A stretch of DNA of 32,000 nucleotides from Sinorhizobium meliloti. Lineage in GTDB: Bacteria; Pseudomonadota; Alphaproteobacteria; Rhizobiales; Rhizobiaceae. The stretch lies in contig NZ_JAGIOS010000002.1 in NCBI RefSeq assembly GCF_017876815.1, forward strand, positions 600,001 through 632,000, read 5' to 3'. The first letter of the stretch is position 1. Each line of letters begins with the position of its first letter. The notes beneath the pieces are model-generated. The model was given only the letters and a program-made list of their open reading frames with translations. It was not told the DNA's origin and searched no databases. Made by a program: the position numbers and the translations under genes. Below, one piece after another: positions 1,040-10,523 of the stretch.

Positions 1040-3496
1040 ATGGCGACGCCTAAGCTGGAGGCCTACCGCAAGAAGCGGGATTTTTCGAAGACGCCGGAGC
1101 CGGTCGGAAATCTGACCGCCGGCGGCAACCGCTTCGTCGTGCACAAACACCATGCGACCGCCGACCACTACGATTTGCGGCTTGAGGTCGACGGCGTGCT
1201 GAAAAGCTGGGCGGTGCCGAAAGGTCCGTCGCTCAATCCGGCCGACAAGCGGCTGGCGGTGGAGACGGAGGACCATCCCCTCGACTATATCGACTTCGAG
1301 GGCGTGATCCCCGAAGGCGAATATGGCGGCGGTCCGATGATCGTCTGGGACAAGGGCGTCTGGGCGCCGATGGGCGATGTCGACGACGACCTGCGCAAGG
1401 GCGCCTTCAAGTTCCGCCTGGCAGGGGAGAAACTCAACGGCGGATGGATGCTGGCCCGTCTGAAGCGTCGCCCGGGAGAGGAGGACCAGCGCAACTGGCT
1501 CCTTTTCAAGGAGCGCGATCCGGCCGCCGACACATCGATCGATATCCTTGCCGCCCGGCCGGAAAGCGTCAAATCCGGCCGGCGGATCGAGGAACTGGTG
1601 GAGAAGCCGATGGCCCCGCCAAAGCCGGTCAAGCTCAATCCCGGCGCGCTTGCCGGTGCGGTCAAGGCCGCACAACCCGAACGCATCGAACCTCAACTCG
1701 CAACACAGACGATTCTCCCCCCGGAAGCCGAAAAGGACTCGAAAAAGCCCGAGCGCTGGCTGCACGAGATCAAGTTCGACGGCTATCGCACCATGGCCCA
1801 CGTGGCGGACGGAAAGGTGCGCCTCGTCACCCGCGGCGGGCTCGACTGGACGAAGCGCTACGGAGACCTGCCGGAGGCTTTCCGGCGGCTGCCGTGCCGC
1901 GATGTGATCATCGACGGCGAGATCGTCGTGCTGGACGAGACGGGGGTCAGCCGCTTCGCGCTGCTGCAGGATGCGCTTTCCACCGGCGCCGGCAACAGCC
2001 TCGTCTTCTACGCCTTCGACCTCCTGCATCTCAACGGCTGGAACCTTTTCGACGTCCCGCTCGAAAAGCGCAAGGCACTGTTGAAGCAATTGCTTGCAGG
2101 GCAGGTCTCAAGCCGCTCGGCGATCCAGTTCAGCGATCATGTGCTGGGTGAAGGGCGCGCGCTTTACGACCGGGCCTCCGAGATGGGCCTGGAAGGGATC
2201 GTCTCCAAACGCATCTCGGCACCCTACCGAAGCGGCCGGTCGAAGACCTGGACCAAGACGAAGGCTTTGAAGGCGGAGGATTTCGTGATCGTCGGCTACA
2301 CCGTTTCGGAGGCGGCCGAGGGCATTGCGTCGCTTGCACTCGGAGAGTGGGCCGACGGCGAGCTGGAATATCGCGGCAAGGTTGGAACCGGCTTCGACGC
2401 GCAGATGCTCAAGGAGTTGCTCGCAAGGCTCGAACCCTTGCGCGCCGGCGCCGCAAAGCTCGAGGGAGCGCCGAGGGAGATCATCTGGGTGCGGCCCTTG
2501 CTCCGGGCGCATATCCACTACGGCAACCGGACGACCGATAACGTCCTGCGTCACGCCGTCTTCAAGGGGCTCCGCGACGTCGAGCTGTCGACGCCGGTTT
2601 CCATGTCGAGAAAGCGCCTGATCTCGGACGCGGACCTCGCCGGCATATCGATTACCAACCCGACCCGGCGGCTCTTCGGCAAATCCGGCCCGACCAAGCT
2701 CGACCTTGCCGTCTATTACGCGATGATCGGCGACTTCATGCTGCCGCATATTCTCGGCCGTCCCGTTTCGCTGGTACGCTGCCCGACCGGCCGGACGCAG
2801 GATTGCTTCTTCCAGCGCCACCCTTTTACCGGCATGCCGCCTTCGGTCGCGACGTTCCAGGCAACCAACTCGGAGGGCGAGGCGAAAACCTACCTGTCGG
2901 TCGAGGACGCGAGAGGATACCTGGCGCTGGCGCAGTTCGGCGTCGTCGAATTCCACAATTGGGGGACGACGCGCAAGCTGCTCGGCAAGCCGGATCGCGT
3001 CGTCTTCGATCTCGATCCCGGCGAGGGCATCGCCTGGCGCGAGGTGGTCGAGGCCGCGATCCACATCAAGGCCGAACTCGAGGCGCTCGCGCTGGTACCC
3101 TTCGTAAAGACATCTGGCGGCAGGGGAGTGCACGTCGTCGTACCGGTCGTGCCGAAGCTCGACTGGAAGAAATTCCATCAGGCGACGAGCGCGCTCGCGA
3201 CCCGTCTCGCGGCCACCGCTCCCGCCACCTTCACCACCACCATGGGCAAGGACAACCGCATAAGGCGCATTTTCATCGACTTCCATCGCAACGCCCGCAG
3301 CCATACCTGGGCGGCCCCCTATTCGCTGCGCGCCCGCACCAATCTGCCAGCCTCCACCCCGCTCAGCTGGGCGGATCTGGAGACTATCGACGCTCCGGCG
3401 GATTTGAACTATTCTTCGCTGCCGGGCCTTCTGGCCACGTCCGGCGATCCCTGGGCCGATATCGACGACTCCGCGAGGGATCTGCCTATACTGTAG
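1040..3496 (+). CDS. ligD: Multidomain ATP-dependent DNA ligase LigD (phosphoesterase - ligase - primase/polymerase)
   Basis: 818-aa ORF. The N-terminus has the LigD phosphoesterase signature (KLEAYRKKRDFSKTPEP, FVVHKHHATADHYDLRLE). The centre is an ATP-ligase adenylation domain (WLHEIKFDGYR motif I lysine, EGIVSKR). The C-terminus is a Pol/primase domain (VVFDLDPGEG, KTSGGRGVHVVVP). Stop is TAG at 3494-3496. Confidence 0.95.
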   Translation: MATPKLEAYRKKRDFSKTPEPVGNLTAGGNRFVVHKHHATADHYDLRLEVDGVLKSWAVPKGPSLNPADKRLAVETEDHPLDYIDFEGVIPEGEYGGGPMIVWDKGVWAPMGDVDDDLRKGAFKFRLAGEKLNGGWMLARLKRRPGEEDQRNWLLFKERDPAADTSIDILAARPESVKSGRRIEELVEKPMAPPKPVKLNPGALAGAVKAAQPERIEPQLATQTILPPEAEKDSKKPERWLHEIKFDGYRTMAHVADGKVRLVTRGGLDWTKRYGDLPEAFRRLPCRDVIIDGEIVVLDETGVSRFALLQDALSTGAGNSLVFYAFDLLHLNGWNLFDVPLEKRKALLKQLLAGQVSSRSAIQFSDHVLGEGRALYDRASEMGLEGIVSKRISAPYRSGRSKTWTKTKALKAEDFVIVGYTVSEAAEGIASLALGEWADGELEYRGKVGTGFDAQMLKELLARLEPLRAGAAKLEGAPREIIWVRPLLRAHIHYGNRTTDNVLRHAVFKGLRDVELSTPVSMSRKRLISDADLAGISITNPTRRLFGKSGPTKLDLAVYYAMIGDFMLPHILGRPVSLVRCPTGRTQDCFFQRHPFTGMPPSVATFQATNSEGEAKTYLSVEDARGYLALAQFGVVEFHNWGTTRKLLGKPDRVVFDLDPGEGIAWREVVEAAIHIKAELEALALVPFVKTSGGRGVHVVVPVVPKLDWKKFHQATSALATRLAATAPATFTTTMGKDNRIRRIFIDFHRNARSHTWAAPYSLRARTNLPASTPLSWADLETIDAPADLNYSSLPGLLATSGDPWADIDDSARDLPIL

Positions 3497-3588
3497 TCGT
3501 TGAGGCGCGGGATGCAGGCGGAAACCGCATGCACTTTCCTCATCCCGCTCTGGCAGATGTGATCGTAGTGCCGCGTAGGGAGAAAACC

Positions 3589-4473
3589 ATGGCACCCAGG
3601 GCAAGTTGGAAGGGCTATATCAGACTGAGTCTCGTGAGCTGTCCGGTGAGGCTTTACCCCGCCACCAGCGCAAGCGAGCGCATTTCCTTCAATCAGCTTC
3701 ACAAGGACACCCATAACCGGATCAACATGAAGCCCGTCGATCCGGAGCTCGGCCTCGTCGAGCGTTCGGACCTCGTGAAGGGCTACGAATACGAAGACAA
3801 GAAATACATCATCATCGAGGATTCGGATCTGGAAAGCGTCCGGATCGAATCCAATCACACGATGAACATCGAGGCTTTCGTCGACGCCGGTTCCGTTGAC
3901 GTCATCTATCAGGACGCCCCTTATTACCTGGCGCCCGACGGGGCCATGGCCGAGGAAACCTTCGTCGTCCTGCGTGAAGCTCTGCGCCGAAGCGGGAAAC
4001 TCGCGATCGCCCGTCTCGTGCTGTCCAGCCGCGAACGGGTGGTGACCATCGGTCCGCGCGAGACCGGAATGTTCGTCTGCACCTTGCGCAATCCCAACGA
4101 GGTGCGCTTCGCGGCGGATTATTTCGGCAACATTCCGGTCGGCAAACCGGATCCCGAGATGCTGCAGCTTGCCGAAGCGCTCATCGAGCAGAAGACGACC
4201 ACCTTCGATCCGAAGCAGTACGAGGACCGCTACGAGGTCGCGCTGATGCAGATGATCCGCGAGAAGCTCAAGGGTCACAAGCCGATCATTGCGCAGGCGC
4301 CCGAACGCGGCAACGTCGTCAATCTCATGGATGCCCTGAAGGCGAGCCTTTCCCAGGCCAAGCCGCCCGCTCGGAGCAAGCCCAAGGCGGAGCCCGCAGC
4401 AAAGGAGCCCGCTGCCAAAGCCGCGGCGGCGAAACGCGTAACTGCTAAACCCGCGGCCAAGAAGAAAGCCTGA
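3589..4473 (+). CDS. ku: Ku DNA end-binding protein (bacterial NHEJ)
   Basis: ATG at 3589 follows a gggagaaaacc ribosome-binding site. The N-terminus MAPRASWKGYIRLSLVSCPVRLYPATS is a canonical bacterial Ku start. It has the Ku core and a Lys/Ala/Pro-rich basic C-terminal tail. The longer in-frame ORF from 2803 overlaps ligD and has Arg-rich shadow composition. Confidence 0.95.
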   Translation: MAPRASWKGYIRLSLVSCPVRLYPATSASERISFNQLHKDTHNRINMKPVDPELGLVERSDLVKGYEYEDKKYIIIEDSDLESVRIESNHTMNIEAFVDAGSVDVIYQDAPYYLAPDGAMAEETFVVLREALRRSGKLAIARLVLSSRERVVTIGPRETGMFVCTLRNPNEVRFAADYFGNIPVGKPDPEMLQLAEALIEQKTTTFDPKQYEDRYEVALMQMIREKLKGHKPIIAQAPERGNVVNLMDALKASLSQAKPPARSKPKAEPAAKEPAAKAAAAKRVTAKPAAKKKA

Positions 4474-5558
4474 TGGCGCTTGCCGGTCGGACATTCGGTA
4501 TCGTGGGCGCGCTCGCCGCCTTTCCGCGGCGGCTGGCGGCTCGCGAGGTCGAGCGCCAGGGCGGGCACCTCAGGCGCGGTGTCAACAGGCAGACGAAGTT
4601 CGTGGTCTTCGGGCGCGGGCTGCTCGCAAAGGCGTCCGAAGCAGAGATCGAGGCTCGCTTCGACAGCGAAAGCGGGCAGCGTCGGCGCGTGCTCAGCGAA
4701 AACGGCTTCCTCCGCCTGCTCGGACTGGCGAGCGCCCCGGAAACATCGGCGCTTACGCGGCAATCGCTCGTCGACCAGTCCGGGCTCTCCCCTCGCCACC
4801 TCGATCTTCTGTCGTTGTTCGACGCTTTCGAGCATGACGGCGAGCCCTATTCTTTCCGCGATCTGATCCTCGCCAGAAAATATGCGGGACTGATGGCCAG
4901 CGGCGCCGGCTGGGGCGCGATCGCGCGCTCGGTCCACCGCTCCGGAAACGTCGCCTCCCTCACCGCGCTCTCGCTGCACCACGAAGGCAAGGATACGATC
5001 TATGCGCGACGCGCCGAGGGCTTGAGCGAGCTCGACGGTCAATTGCTGCTCGACGTCGGCTCTCCCGACGAGGAGGCGCTCGAAGATCTCTTCGCTCAGG
5101 CCGAAGCGGCCGAAGAGGCGGGGGAATACGACCAGGCGGCCGCGTTCTACCAGCGCTATCTCGCCATCGACCGCACCGACGAGGTTGCAGCGTTCAACCG
5201 GGCCAACTGCCTCAGAGCCGCCGGGCGGGAGGCCGAAGCGGCGCATGACTATGCCCGCGCCATAAAGCTCGATCCTTGCTTCGTCGAAGCCTGGTTCAAT
5301 CTTGCCGGGCTGATGGGCGAACGTGGGCGCACGGACACGGCCAGGCGGCATCTGAGGAGAGCGATCGAAATCGATGGCGATTACGCCGATGCCATCTTCA
5401 ACCTGGCGAAGCTGGAGTTCGATGCCGGCAATCTCGCCGAAGCCCGCCGCTGGTGGATGCGTTACCTCGCGCTCGATCAGCATTCCGAATGGGCACGCGC
5501 CGCCGAGCGCGGCGTGCAGTTCGTGAACCTTCATCTCCTCTCCAGAACGGCTGGCTGA
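4473..5558 (+). CDS. BRCT domain / TPR repeat protein, possibly with a central MerR-like HTH segment; function unknown
   Basis: Its ATG overlaps the ku stop (TGATG at 4471-4475). Residues 1-85 (GRTFGIVGALAAFPRRLAAREVERQGGHLRRGVNRQTKFVVFGRG...RVLSENGFLRLLGL) match the BRCT pattern seen at the C-terminus of NAD-dependent ligases. Residues ~210-340 carry 3-4 TPR-like repeats (AAFYQRYLAIDRTD, AHDYARAIKLDPCFVEAWFNLAGL, RRHLRRAIEIDGDYADAIFNLAKL, ARRWWMRYLALD). GC3-rich codon usage. Confidence 0.75.
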   Translation: MALAGRTFGIVGALAAFPRRLAAREVERQGGHLRRGVNRQTKFVVFGRGLLAKASEAEIEARFDSESGQRRRVLSENGFLRLLGLASAPETSALTRQSLVDQSGLSPRHLDLLSLFDAFEHDGEPYSFRDLILARKYAGLMASGAGWGAIARSVHRSGNVASLTALSLHHEGKDTIYARRAEGLSELDGQLLLDVGSPDEEALEDLFAQAEAAEEAGEYDQAAAFYQRYLAIDRTDEVAAFNRANCLRAAGREAEAAHDYARAIKLDPCFVEAWFNLAGLMGERGRTDTARRHLRRAIEIDGDYADAIFNLAKLEFDAGNLAEARRWWMRYLALDQHSEWARAAERGVQFVNLHLLSRTAG

Positions 5559-5559
5559 C

Positions 5560-6201
5560 ATGAGCGGAAAATTCCTGTTCGACGGGCCGGGCGATGCGCC
5601 CGTCACCATTCTCCTCGCGCATGGAGCCGGCGCGCCGATGGATTCGACTTCGATGACGGCGGCCGCCATGGCGCTTGCAGGGGTGGGTTTTCGCGTCGCC
5701 CGCTTCGAGTTCGGCTATATGGCAGCCCGGCGCACTGCCGACGGGCGCAAGCCCCCGCCCCGCGCGGAAACGCTCAATCCGGAGTATCGGGCGGCCATTG
5801 CCGAGCTCGGCGCCCAAGGCACCCTCGTGATCGGCGGCAAGTCCATGGGCGGTCGCGTCGCCAGCATGGTCGCCGACGACCTTCATGCCGAGGGCAAGAT
5901 CGCCGGGCTCCTTTGCCTCGGCTATCCCTTCCATCCCCCCGGAAAACCGGACCAGTTGCGCACCCGACATCTTACCGATCTCAAGACGCCTGCACTGATC
6001 TGTCAGGGGACCCGCGACGAATTCGGCACCCGCGACGAGGTTTCGCGATACGCCTTGTCCGACAGGATCGAACTTCTCTGGCTGGAGGACGGCGACCACG
6101 ACCTCAAGCCGCGCAAGACAGTCTCGGGCTTCTCGACCGCAGATCACCTGAAGACGCTGGCCGAGGCGGTTGCGCGATGGGCGGATCGCCTCGCGCCTTG
6201 A
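5560..6201 (+). CDS. Alpha/beta-fold hydrolase (COG3571 / KANL3-Tex30-like family)
   Basis: ATG lies 1 nt after the preceding stop. 213 aa. A nucleophile elbow GGKSMGG, an acidic residue in QGTRDEFG and a His in EDGDHDLK give a visible Ser-Asp-His triad in the canonical order. Confidence 0.8.
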   Translation: MSGKFLFDGPGDAPVTILLAHGAGAPMDSTSMTAAAMALAGVGFRVARFEFGYMAARRTADGRKPPPRAETLNPEYRAAIAELGAQGTLVIGGKSMGGRVASMVADDLHAEGKIAGLLCLGYPFHPPGKPDQLRTRHLTDLKTPALICQGTRDEFGTRDEVSRYALSDRIELLWLEDGDHDLKPRKTVSGFSTADHLKTLAEAVARWADRLAP

Positions 6202-6208
6202 GCTCCTC

Positions 6209-6982
6209 ATGAAGATCGCGACCTTCAACATCAACGGCGTGAACAAGCGGCTCGACATCCTCTTGACCTGGCTCGGTACGGCCGAGCCGGACGTGGTCTG
6301 CCTGCAGGAGCTCAAGGCGACTGACGGACAGTTTCCGAGAGCCGCGATCGAGGCGGCGGGTTACGGTGCCGTCTGGCGGGGCCAGGCCGCCTGGAACGGC
6401 GTTGCCATTCTCGCCCGCGATCGTGAGCCGGTGCTCACGCGAACCGGGTTGCCCGGCGATTCCTCGGATACGCAGAGCCGCTACATCGAAGCTGCGGTGA
6501 ACGGCATCCTGATTGCGTCGCTCTATGCGCCCAACGGCAATCCGCAGCCCGGGCCGAAATTCGACTACAAGCTCGCCTGGCACCTGCGCTTCAACCAGCA
6601 TGCCGCCGCGCTGCTCGAGACGGGTGTGCCGGTGGTGCTCGCCGGCGACTACAACGTCGTTCCGGAACCGCGCGACATCTATCCGACCCGCTCCTACGAC
6701 GACAACGCCCTCGTCCAGCCGGAAAGCCGCGCAGCCTTCCGGAGCCTTGTCGATCAGGGCTGGCTCGACGCACTGCGCAAGATCCACCCGAAAGAGCAGC
6801 TCTTCACTTTCTGGGACTACCGCCGCAACCGCTGGCAGCGCGACGCCGGCCTTCGCCTCGACCACATTCTCCTGAGCCGCAAGCTCCGGCGCCGCCTGAC
6901 CGGCGCCGGCATCGACCGGGAGATCCGTGCGCTTGAAGGGTCGAGCGACCATGCGCCGGTATGGGTGTCGATGCGGGATTAG
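6209..6982 (+). CDS. xthA: Exodeoxyribonuclease III (AP endonuclease / 3'-5' exonuclease)
   Basis: ATG at 6209 is 7 nt after the hydrolase stop. MKIATFNINGVNKRLD...VVCLQELK, LAGDYNVVPEPRD and the C-terminal SSDHAPVWV are classic ExoIII/EEP nuclease motifs. 257 aa. Confidence 0.92.
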   Translation: MKIATFNINGVNKRLDILLTWLGTAEPDVVCLQELKATDGQFPRAAIEAAGYGAVWRGQAAWNGVAILARDREPVLTRTGLPGDSSDTQSRYIEAAVNGILIASLYAPNGNPQPGPKFDYKLAWHLRFNQHAAALLETGVPVVLAGDYNVVPEPRDIYPTRSYDDNALVQPESRAAFRSLVDQGWLDALRKIHPKEQLFTFWDYRRNRWQRDAGLRLDHILLSRKLRRRLTGAGIDREIRALEGSSDHAPVWVSMRD

Positions 6983-9535: not shown

Positions 9536-10041
9536 TCATGTTCCCGGTGGATGCAATCGCGTGTCCAGCGCAAATGACTCTTGGAATTTGAGGGCATAGG
9601 CGGCCGGCGCGGCGCCCCCGAGAAAGACCAGGTTCCAGCTATGCGGCGAGACCGCGCTCGGGATTGCGACGAACCGATGGCGTCGAAGCAGATCATCCCC
9701 ATAGGCTTGCTGTCCCGCGCCGGGAATGCCCGGCCGTGCCCAGTTGGGATTAGGCACGCTTTTCGGATCGACGACATAGACATCGCCGGCGTCCGCGATG
9801 GCTGCGGCCGTCATTGTATGCGCCACCATGTCCAGCGCCCGAAAACCCTTATGAACCGCGACCTCAAGGATCGCCGTCGCAGGGTCGAGTGAGCAGTAGA
9901 CCGCACGACCCCCTTACTGTTCCAGCGGCCGCCCACTCGGTAGGCGCCTTCTCCGCTATCCCATGTCGGTGCGTGGACGGCTTGGTCGAGCCGCCAAGCC
10001 ACCAACTCGGTCCCGCCGAGCGCAACCGGCAGAAGGGTCAT
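9536..10041 (-). pseudogene. RES-domain toxin (RES/Xre type II TA family), disrupted by a -1 frameshift in a G5 run
   Basis: ORFs 9811..10041 (MTLLPVALGGTELVAWRLDQ...YRVGGRWNSKG) and 9536..9829 are two frames of one RES protein. Shifting frame at the C5 run 9889-9893 (G5 on the coding strand) restores ...RWNSKGGRAVYCSLDPATAILEVAVHKGFRALDMVAHTMTAAAIADAG.... The ATG overlaps the antitoxin stop (ATGA at 10038-10041). Confidence 0.75.
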
Positions 10042-10523
10042 GCATAGATGCCGTATTCGAGGCGGTCGAGATGATCCTCGACCAGCTCGACGCCGGGCGG
10101 CGTCCCGAGAAGATCAATCGGGCGGCGTTGGTCTAGTCCGACCGCCGGACGCTCCAGCCATTGTTCGGCTTCCGCCTGCGATCCAAAAATATCCGTCGCC
10201 TTTGCGAGTATTTCCGCAAACTTCCACGCGCGACCACTCTGCTCCTGGCTAAGCGGCTTGTTGGGTGTCTCCTTGCGCCGCTGCCACGTGCGCAAACTCA
10301 TACCTACTGCCTTTTCGAGCGACTCGGTCTTGCCGATGAAGACGAGATTCCCGACAAGGTGATCCAGTGCCGATGCCGGCAGACCACGCAAGAGAAGCTC
10401 GTGCGCGTCGAGCGCATTGGTCAGGTGATGCGCCAGAACACGCGAACCGCCGAGTAAGGTCTCGATTTTTTGCAGCTCACCACCGCCTGCCGCTGGTGTC
10501 GGTGCTTTTGCCGCGAGAGCCAT
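10038..10523 (-). CDS. Xre-like antitoxin with DUF2384 C-terminal domain (partner of RES toxins; MbcA/ParS-like)
   Basis: 161 aa. RBS aggagaaaaatt precedes the ATG. The C-terminus AEQWLERPAVGLDQRRPIDLLGTPPGVELVEDHLDRLEYGIYA is the typical DUF2384 signature. It sits immediately upstream of, and overlaps, the RES gene. Confidence 0.85.
   Translation of the reverse strand: MALAAKAPTPAAGGGELQKIETLLGGSRVLAHHLTNALDAHELLLRGLPASALDHLVGNLVFIGKTESLEKAVGMSLRTWQRRKETPNKPLSQEQSGRAWKFAEILAKATDIFGSQAEAEQWLERPAVGLDQRRPIDLLGTPPGVELVEDHLDRLEYGIYA

Follow-up and report, generated by a model that had tools for sequence, protein, structure and literature searches.

In teaching and in models, non-homologous end-joining of bacteria is a minimal system of two proteins, Ku and LigD. 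Here we describe a further gene, located directly downstream of ku in a stretch of 32,000 nucleotides from Sinorhizobium meliloti (contig NZ_JAGIOS010000002.1, positions 600,001 to 632,000; hereafter the window), whose product combines an N-terminal BRCT domain with a MerR-type winged helix-turn-helix (wHTH) and C-terminal tetratricopeptide repeats (TPR). The locus lies on the pSymB chromid, the window being 100% identical to NC_017326.1 (strain SM11), and its gene order, with ligD upstream of ku, matches that of ligD2-ku2, where ku2 is presumably the pSymB copy. In S. meliloti, ligD2-ku2 accounts for >99% of log-phase end-joining (Dupuy et al., PMC6379672), and the gene downstream of ku2 goes unmentioned in the text of that study. 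A 99%-identical protein in GenBank carries only the label 'tetratricopeptide repeat protein'. Our comparison of sequences and predicted structures marks the protein as the representative of a new, well-defined family, and as a candidate for a third component of end-joining in Alphaproteobacteria.

The described proteins with which its parts can be compared are the C-terminal BRCT domain of the bacterial ligase LigA (PDB entries 2owo, 1l7b and 1dgs), the BRCT domain of RFC1/p140 (2ebu and 2k7f), which binds 5'-phosphorylated double-stranded DNA ends, the MerR regulators (PF13411), and the eukaryotic break-repair factors (the tandem BRCT of Lig4 with XRCC4, Pol lambda/mu, and XRCC1-LigIII), which share with our protein a BRCT domain with genetic links to Ku and to a repair ligase. 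The roles of residues T415, R423 and K458 in the RFC1 domain were reportedly established by Kobayashi et al. Mycobacterial UvrD1 and Sir2, cited as proposed modulators of Ku/LigD end-joining (PMC7719229; preprint 10.1101/2023.09.29.560180), likewise stand outside the Ku-LigD pair, but are unrelated in sequence and fold. Their genes lie outside the ku operon, and it is the position within this operon that defines the present family. The combination of BRCT, wHTH and TPR matched no Pfam, NCBIfam or PADLOC family, and an assignment to a PADLOC defence system was rejected, the sole match being a trivial TPR alignment to a PrimPol model. We found no published description of the family, comparative studies of bacterial non-homologous end-joining included. 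This agrees with the original prediction, which was made from the DNA letters of the locus and knew of no characterised bacterial end-joining component with this architecture.

Domain architecture of the protein encoded after ku

When the S. meliloti protein was searched as a single sequence against Pfam and the PDB, only its TPR part was recognised (TPR_2, E 5.6e-18, aa ~203-343; TPR_17, 5.8e-17; TPR_1, 2e-13). Pfam BRCT gave no match at E<=1, MerR_1 was not matched in Pfam either, and the similarity to the LigA C-terminus was weak (aa 2-58, E 0.002). Since these searches found TPR only, family profiles were needed. A BRCT profile made from residues 1-92 of 44 diverse family members retrieved from the PDB the BRCT domains of E. 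coli LigA (2owo, E 1.9e-10), T. thermophilus LigA (1l7b, 3.2e-10) and human RFC1 (2ebu, 6e-8), in alignments that span the LigA and RFC1 domains end to end, and 30 of the 44 members matched PF00533 BRCT individually (best E 2.6e-8). The AlphaFold2 (AF2) model contains the element order beta1-alpha1-beta2-beta3-alpha2-beta4-alpha3, with strands at residues 7-11, 32-35, 43-46 and 72-75 and helices at 19-28, 56-68 and 76-82, at a pLDDT of about 85-94. BRCT domains also lead the best 50 PDB matches of a Foldseek search with the N-terminal model, RFC1 being first (E 1.6e-4), and the domains of LigA, PARP1, Dbf4, XRCC1, LigIII and Lig4 are found among the same 50. The LigA-like BRCT domain that the original prediction had placed in the N-terminal ~85 residues is thus backed at the family level by both profile search and structure prediction, the two checks it had proposed for the fold.

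Residue conservation was read from 112 members with <70% mutual identity. G12 in the beta1-alpha1 turn is present in 103 out of 103 ungapped sequences, the glycines G30/G31 ahead of beta2 are conserved, S75-E76 is close to invariant, and R19/R20 are conserved in most members. The stretch T/S38-R39-R/Q/K40-T41, mostly conserved as well, corresponds to the SKKT of LigA and RFC1 ('SVSKKT' in LigA), and position 62 is R or K in 68 of the 112. The family thus shares with LigA the fold, the motifs G-x-x-hydrophobic...G, S/T-K/R-K/R-T-D and GG, and the final 'SE..FL..LG' helix, while with RFC1 it shares mostly conserved equivalents of R423 (R19/R20) and K458 (R/K62). Position 11, the counterpart of the Thr in the 'TG' turn of LigA and RFC1 and, in BRCT domains that bind phosphopeptides, of the Ser that binds the phosphate, is occupied by I, V, L, A or F, and by Ser or Thr in none of the 112 members. 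These conserved residues, taken together with position 11, place the domain in the DNA-binding LigA/RFC1 class minus one element of the phosphate pocket.

Unlike the LigA domain, which forms the C-terminus of a ligase, the family BRCT is free-standing at the N-terminus, carries an insertion of ~9 residues ahead of helix 2, has I/V/L where the 'TG' turn of LigA has its Thr, and is fused to a wHTH and TPR in a protein encoded beside the ATP-dependent LigD system. Compared with RFC1, the family never has Ser or Thr at the T415 equivalent and lacks the N-terminal helix on which DNA binding by RFC1 depends. The BRCT domains of XRCC1, LigIII and Lig4 rank 31-48 in Foldseek, below LigA and RFC1, and display no specific sequence relationship to the family, which, unlike the eukaryotic factors, has a single BRCT domain and adds a MerR-type wHTH and TPR not known from them. 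The phosphopeptide pocket, formed by a Ser/Thr in the beta1-alpha1 turn together with a Lys in alpha2, was not found in the 112 members; it is a feature of a functional subtype, and the fold is independent of it. Since the Ser/Thr is absent, recruitment through phosphopeptides, as in eukaryotes, appears unlikely for this protein. In its presumed function the protein resembles the eukaryotic BRCT scaffolds of break repair, but it is not their orthologue, and a similar role, if it has one, would be of independent origin.

The region that follows, residues ~95-165, had been likened to a MerR-type helix-turn-helix plus dimerisation helix, and the first half of this assignment is supported at the level of the family. 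The family consensus matches PF13411 MerR_1 at E 6.9e-5 and 23.3 bits (gathering score 21.6) over profile positions 2-67 of 69. Individual members give weaker signals: residues 93-200 matched MerR_1 at E<=1 in 6 of 45 members (best 2.6e-4), and a PDB profile search of the region returned GlnR alone, at E 1.3. The AF2 model agrees with the MerR_1 topology of helix 1, helix 2, wing, helix 3 and helix 4, with helices at 96-103, 107-115, 128-142 and 147-157 and an extended segment, the wing, at 116-127. As in MerR regulators, the helix-turn-helix is thus accompanied by a wing and two further helices, and the wing motif 'G-x-R-x-F/Y-x-x-x-D-L' is kept as FRDL, F128, R129 and D130 being nearly invariant in the family. 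The dimerisation helix, in contrast, was not borne out: neither the long helix with its antiparallel coiled coil nor an effector-binding region of MerR proteins is present in the model, in which helix 4 is followed by a short helix (160-165) and three beta strands (167-171, 175-180 and 183-185) and then by the TPR. This beta element is closed by an LDGQ motif, in which G189 and Q190 do not vary across 45 diverse members, and matched no Pfam or PDB family.

The C-terminal third consists of TPR, as had been predicted. Ten helices at 200-360 form about 4-5 near-consensus repeats and a capping helix; the region aligns with consensus TPR and O-linked GlcNAc transferase (OGT) TPR structures in the PDB and superimposes on consensus TPR at a root-mean-square deviation of 1.2-2.4 A in Foldseek, where the full-length model retrieved TPR proteins only. 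The full-length AF2 model has a mean pLDDT of 91.6 and a pTM of 0.55, with a drop in confidence at aa 190-200, and residues 1-200 modelled separately behave as a single unit (pLDDT 88, pTM 0.84), in which the BRCT domain packs against the wHTH. The modest full-length pTM and the lower confidence at 190-200 suggest a compact BRCT-wHTH unit that is flexibly joined to the TPR. Several family members bear the database name 'O-linked GlcNAc transferase', and their likeness to OGT concerns the TPR region only. An assignment to this enzyme family (GT41) was rejected: the OGT alignment is limited to aa 214-339, and the protein ends at 361 without a catalytic domain. The name is a TPR-based misnomer.

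Family distribution and association with ku

An exhaustive search with residues 1-195 yielded 197 clusters at 50% identity, nearly all of them of 355-385 aa and with an N-terminal match. The named members belong without exception to the Alphaproteobacteria. The association with ku was assessed in a scan of one genome per species with the peptide pattern [DE]LDGQ[LFM]RLP, which was taken from an alignment of 12 distant-clade sequences and holds no information on ku. It returned 30 loci, 29 of them from distant-clade alphaproteobacterial metagenome-assembled genomes (MAGs; including Geminicoccaceae and Stellaceae) and one (L032) from a Rhizobiaceae MAG whose protein is 56% identical to that of S. 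meliloti; neighbouring genes were identified by tblastn with the window's own proteins.

The original prediction had named a distribution of homologues independent of ku as an outcome that would speak against it, and the distribution is not independent. In 19 of the 30 loci ligD, ku and the BRCT-wHTH-TPR gene are colinear, the latter directly after ku, and in 4 more ku lies about 1.7 kb upstream, and hence within 2 kb, with two opposite-strand genes in between. The gene directly follows ligD without ku in one locus, one locus is truncated, and the remaining five, all of Geminicoccaceae type, have neither ku nor ligD in the available flanks. Outside the scan, ku is found immediately upstream in Mesorhizobium, Devosia and locus L038. 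Divergent members with an N-terminal identity of 26-35% to the S. meliloti protein (P0309, P0248, P0324 and P0276) also directly follow ku, and a further divergent member (P0351) sits in the order ku, BRCT-wHTH-TPR gene, ligD, with overlaps of 17 nt and 4 nt (L042, 7091-11503, GCA_035998295.1), a rearranged yet even tighter version of the operon. The observation on which the original prediction rested is confirmed, and its interpretation is supported as far as computation reaches, the refuting conditions open to computation having all come out in its favour.

These synteny data bear directly on the simplest alternative, that an unrelated TPR protein is a chance neighbour of ku. Public databases list it under no more specific name than TPR protein, or under 'O-linked GlcNAc transferase', which would fit such a view. 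With a few ku genes among thousands of genes, however, chance adjacency is estimated at about 1 in 1000 per genome, and adjacency is retained in 19 of the 30 genomes of the ku-blind scan, at 26-35% N-terminal identity, and through the reordering to ku, BRCT-wHTH-TPR gene, ligD. On this synteny, chance is effectively refuted as an explanation, and we regard it as highly improbable.

Seven metagenome gene calls run the Ku C-terminus into the BRCT-wHTH-TPR protein, and these bear on adjacency only: the apparent fusions of Ku with it, or of it with the hydrolase (P0227, P0240, P0247, P0250, P0323, P0230 and P0263), were rejected as read-throughs that result from frameshifts and contain Arg-rich sequence translated out of frame. 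At several loci from long-read MAGs (L011, L012, L013, L026, L029 and L030), too, the reading frame of ligD, ku or the BRCT-wHTH-TPR gene is disrupted by frameshifts. In the Geminicoccaceae-type genomes, where ku is 1.7 kb away in four and missing from the available flank in five, the gene is flanked by a conserved, divergently transcribed pair (6327-8092 in L023, and likewise 6360-8123 in L014), which encodes a coiled-coil protein of ~459 aa with weak SMC-like matches and a 129-aa protein without family. The gene is single-copy on the pSymB-type replicons of Sinorhizobium/Ensifer and was found on no other plasmids. The DNA from ku to xth, used as a 2.8-kb query, matched 51 Rhizobium plasmids at 60-80% identity, and the N-terminus of the BRCT-wHTH-TPR protein is encoded on none of them (0/51), so there are related ku or xth genes that lack this partner.

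The genes downstream of the BRCT-wHTH-TPR gene are far less constant than ku. An alpha/beta hydrolase (Abhydrolase_11) and xth, encoding exodeoxyribonuclease III (ExoIII), follow it directly only in Sinorhizobium, Mesorhizobium (with a small insert) and Devosia, and neither is near it at 29 of the 30 scanned loci, which with one exception are from the distant clade; in L027 the hydrolase lies upstream of ligD instead. The only conserved gene found downstream in the distant clade encodes an NHL-repeat beta-propeller, which was rejected as a partner and judged unrelated, being confined to a sub-clade and placed at variable distance. This pattern is relevant to the view that the protein is a scaffold for base-excision or single-strand-break repair, an analogue of XRCC1 serving the co-encoded ExoIII and hydrolase, with the position beside ku being secondary. 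Such a role is suggested by the close spacing of hydrolase and xth in Sinorhizobium, Mesorhizobium and Devosia (0-7 nt, or after the small insert) and by the presence of XRCC1 and LigIII domains among the Foldseek matches, but ku or ligD is kept where both downstream genes are missing, and L038 has ku and the BRCT-wHTH-TPR gene alone. Because of these absences, the conserved core is the pair with ku and not that with xth, and we consider the base-excision scaffold quite unlikely.

The same loci inform a second alternative, that the protein is an antagonist or recycler of Ku, which instead of promoting joining might, for instance, release Ku rings that stay trapped on DNA after repair, or hold Ku in check at replication forks. 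TPR domains are often adaptors for chaperones or proteases, and co-expression appears tight with Ku rather than with LigD: L038 carries ku and the gene without ligD, and the overlap is with ku. The Stellaceae MAG locus L028 (5399-9089), where the gene follows ligD and ku is absent within 8 kb, argues against this reading, to which we assign a low probability.

Gene order and regulatory signals at the S. meliloti locus

The genes of the locus, all on the plus strand, are arranged in the order ligD, ku, BRCT-wHTH-TPR gene, Abhydrolase_11 and xth (Table 1). LigD is a three-domain protein with 3'-phosphoesterase, ATP-ligase and primase-polymerase domains (PE-Lig-Pol), and Ku has a C-terminal tail rich in Lys and Ala. 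The ku gene starts with the ATG at 3589 and ends with the TGA at 4471-4473, which has one base, A4473, in common with the ATG of the BRCT-wHTH-TPR gene at 4473-4475. The hydrolase gene follows the stop of the latter after 1 nt and xth follows the hydrolase stop after 7 nt, so that window positions 3589-6982 form a four-gene block with spacings of -1, +1 and +7 nt; no terminator-like site was found between ku and xth. Within this block, the hydrolase and ExoIII may act as end-cleaning partners of the Ku system.

Table 1. Positions of the genes, protein domains and junction of the ku locus in the window
Feature	Position	Strand	Evidence
ligD	1040..3496	+	Pfam: LigD_N 1.2e-43, DNA_ligase_A_M 1.4e-27, LigD_Prim-Pol 1.3e-84
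ku (bacterial Ku, 294 aa)	3589..4473	+	TIGR02772 Ku_bact E 1.3e-84; PF02735 E 2.6e-44
TGATG junction, ku stop / BRCT-wHTH-TPR start	4471..4475	+	direct read
BRCT-wHTH-TPR gene (361 aa, ATG start)	4473..5558	+	open reading frame
BRCT domain, aa ~5-85	4485..4727	+	family profile; Pfam in relatives; Foldseek of AF2 model
MerR-type winged helix-turn-helix, aa ~94-158	4752..4946	+	family consensus vs PF13411 MerR_1; AF2 helices
Short helix and three-stranded beta element ending in LDGQ	4950..5048	+	AF2 secondary structure; G189/Q190 invariant
TPR domain, aa ~200-360	5070..5552	+	Pfam TPR_2 5.6e-18, TPR_17 5.8e-17; PDB; Foldseek
Alpha/beta hydrolase (Abhydrolase_11)	5560..6201	+	PF20408 E 5.3e-71
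xth (exodeoxyribonuclease III)	6209..6982	+	TIGR00195 E 2e-69

The one-base overlap had been taken as a sign of coupled, stoichiometric production with Ku. The overlap itself stands, but it does not extend to the family as a conserved trait: the distance from the ku stop is -1 nt in S. meliloti and L032 and -4 nt in Mesorhizobium and L038, and amounts to +122 nt in Devosia and to +4 to +54 nt in the distant clade. Going by these spacings, the gene looks co-oriented and co-transcribed with ku in general, while the codon overlap appears specific to the rhizobial lineage and strict translational coupling does not appear to be conserved.

The spacer that separates ligD from ku contains nested inverted repeats at 3507-3548 (GCGGGATG...CATCCCGC around GGAAACCGCATGC/GCATGCACTTTCC), which could be a ligD terminator hairpin or the operator of a separately regulated ku promoter. 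A conserved operator upstream of ku was rejected, as the repeats of S. meliloti are not kept in other genera (Mesorhizobium, Devosia, L032 and L038 were compared). In L032 and Devosia the spacer between ligD and ku amounts to a few tens of nt only.

This region is of interest for a further alternative, in which the protein is a transcriptional regulator whose MerR-type helix-turn-helix would bind an operator of the ku operon, while TPR and BRCT would sense a signal or mediate oligomerisation. Such a regulator could, for example, drive the stress induction of ku2, which proceeds by a route other than RpoE2 that is left unidentified (PMC6379672). The MerR_1-type wHTH and the position of the nested repeats, 40-80 nt upstream of the ku ATG, would both suit this role. 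Yet the coiled coil and effector domain of MerR proteins are absent, no operator is conserved among the genera compared and the short ligD-ku spacers of L032 and Devosia add to this, and regulator genes are seldom found between ku and ligD with codon overlaps of the kind seen in L042. Furthermore, we know of no precedent for a LigA/RFC1-class BRCT domain in bacterial transcription factors. We therefore judge a regulatory function to be unlikely.

Elsewhere in the window, a minus-strand gene for a DUF2384 protein (Xre-type antitoxin-like, 10038-10523) is accompanied by a 97-aa open reading frame (9536-9829), which may be a remnant toxin, in which case the two would represent a decayed toxin-antitoxin pair. 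A peak in AT skew at 13-14 kb was set aside, as it is accounted for by a minus-strand MFS transporter gene.

Proposed role in alphaproteobacterial end-joining

Taken together, the conserved position beside ku and the domain composition point to a lineage-specific, alphaproteobacterial accessory factor of Ku/LigD end-joining that would act as a DNA-binding adaptor, a reading to which we give roughly an even chance of being correct. The protein would be made together with Ku, and in rhizobia its translation may be coupled to that of ku via the 1- or 4-nt overlap. The basic BRCT-wHTH unit could then contact DNA at or near the break, much as LigA and RFC1 do with their DNA-binding BRCT domains and MerR proteins with their wing. 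The TPR domain, in turn, might hold a peptide segment of another protein, candidates being the C-terminal tail of Ku, LigD and, in rhizobia, the two enzymes encoded alongside, ExoIII and the alpha/beta hydrolase. As a result, end-processing or ligation activity would be tethered to Ku-bound ends, or the loading and removal of Ku would be controlled.

Several observations weigh against this accessory-factor reading. The canonical phosphate-binding Ser/Thr of BRCT domains is replaced by I/V/L in the members examined, and as Ser and Thr never occur at position 11, it is doubtful that the protein recognises 5'-phosphate ends as RFC1 does. Five Geminicoccaceae loci lack ku and ligD, within 8 kb on each side in L009, L014, L015 and L022 and within the ~1.3 kb available upstream in L020, and two divergent members on contigs of 1.4 and 2.7 kb have an opposite-strand gene in place of ku upstream. 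Conversely, many ku genes have no such neighbour, including those of Rhizobium plasmids and the other ku genes of S. meliloti, so the protein cannot be a universal requirement. The genetics of Ku2/LigD2, finally, have been explained without it (PMC6379672).

A more specific version of the accessory-factor reading can be put forward only tentatively, and we hold it to be possible rather than probable. In many Alphaproteobacteria, end-joining would then be a three-component system, in which a candidate BRCT-wHTH-TPR scaffold is co-made with Ku, binds the break through its BRCT-wHTH unit and recruits LigD, ExoIII or the hydrolase through its TPR. Such a scaffold would be an independently evolved counterpart of XRCC1 and XRCC4-Lig4, and would be needed for the efficiency or fidelity of Ku2/LigD2 repair, the main end-joining pathway of S. 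meliloti.

S. meliloti offers quantitative plasmid and I-SceI repair assays as well as ku and ligD mutants (PMC6379672). Deletions of ku2 may be polar on the overlapping BRCT-wHTH-TPR gene, which matters for how these mutants are read. The gene could have a bearing on end cleaning before LigD acts, on the loading or removal of Ku, and on how stress induces ku2 independently of RpoE2. If true, a third conserved gene in the ku operon would alter the picture of end-joining by Ku and LigD in a large group of bacteria that live in soil or in symbiosis. As BRCT is the same interaction module that organises break repair in eukaryotes, this would also mean that BRCT-based scaffolding of break repair has arisen convergently.

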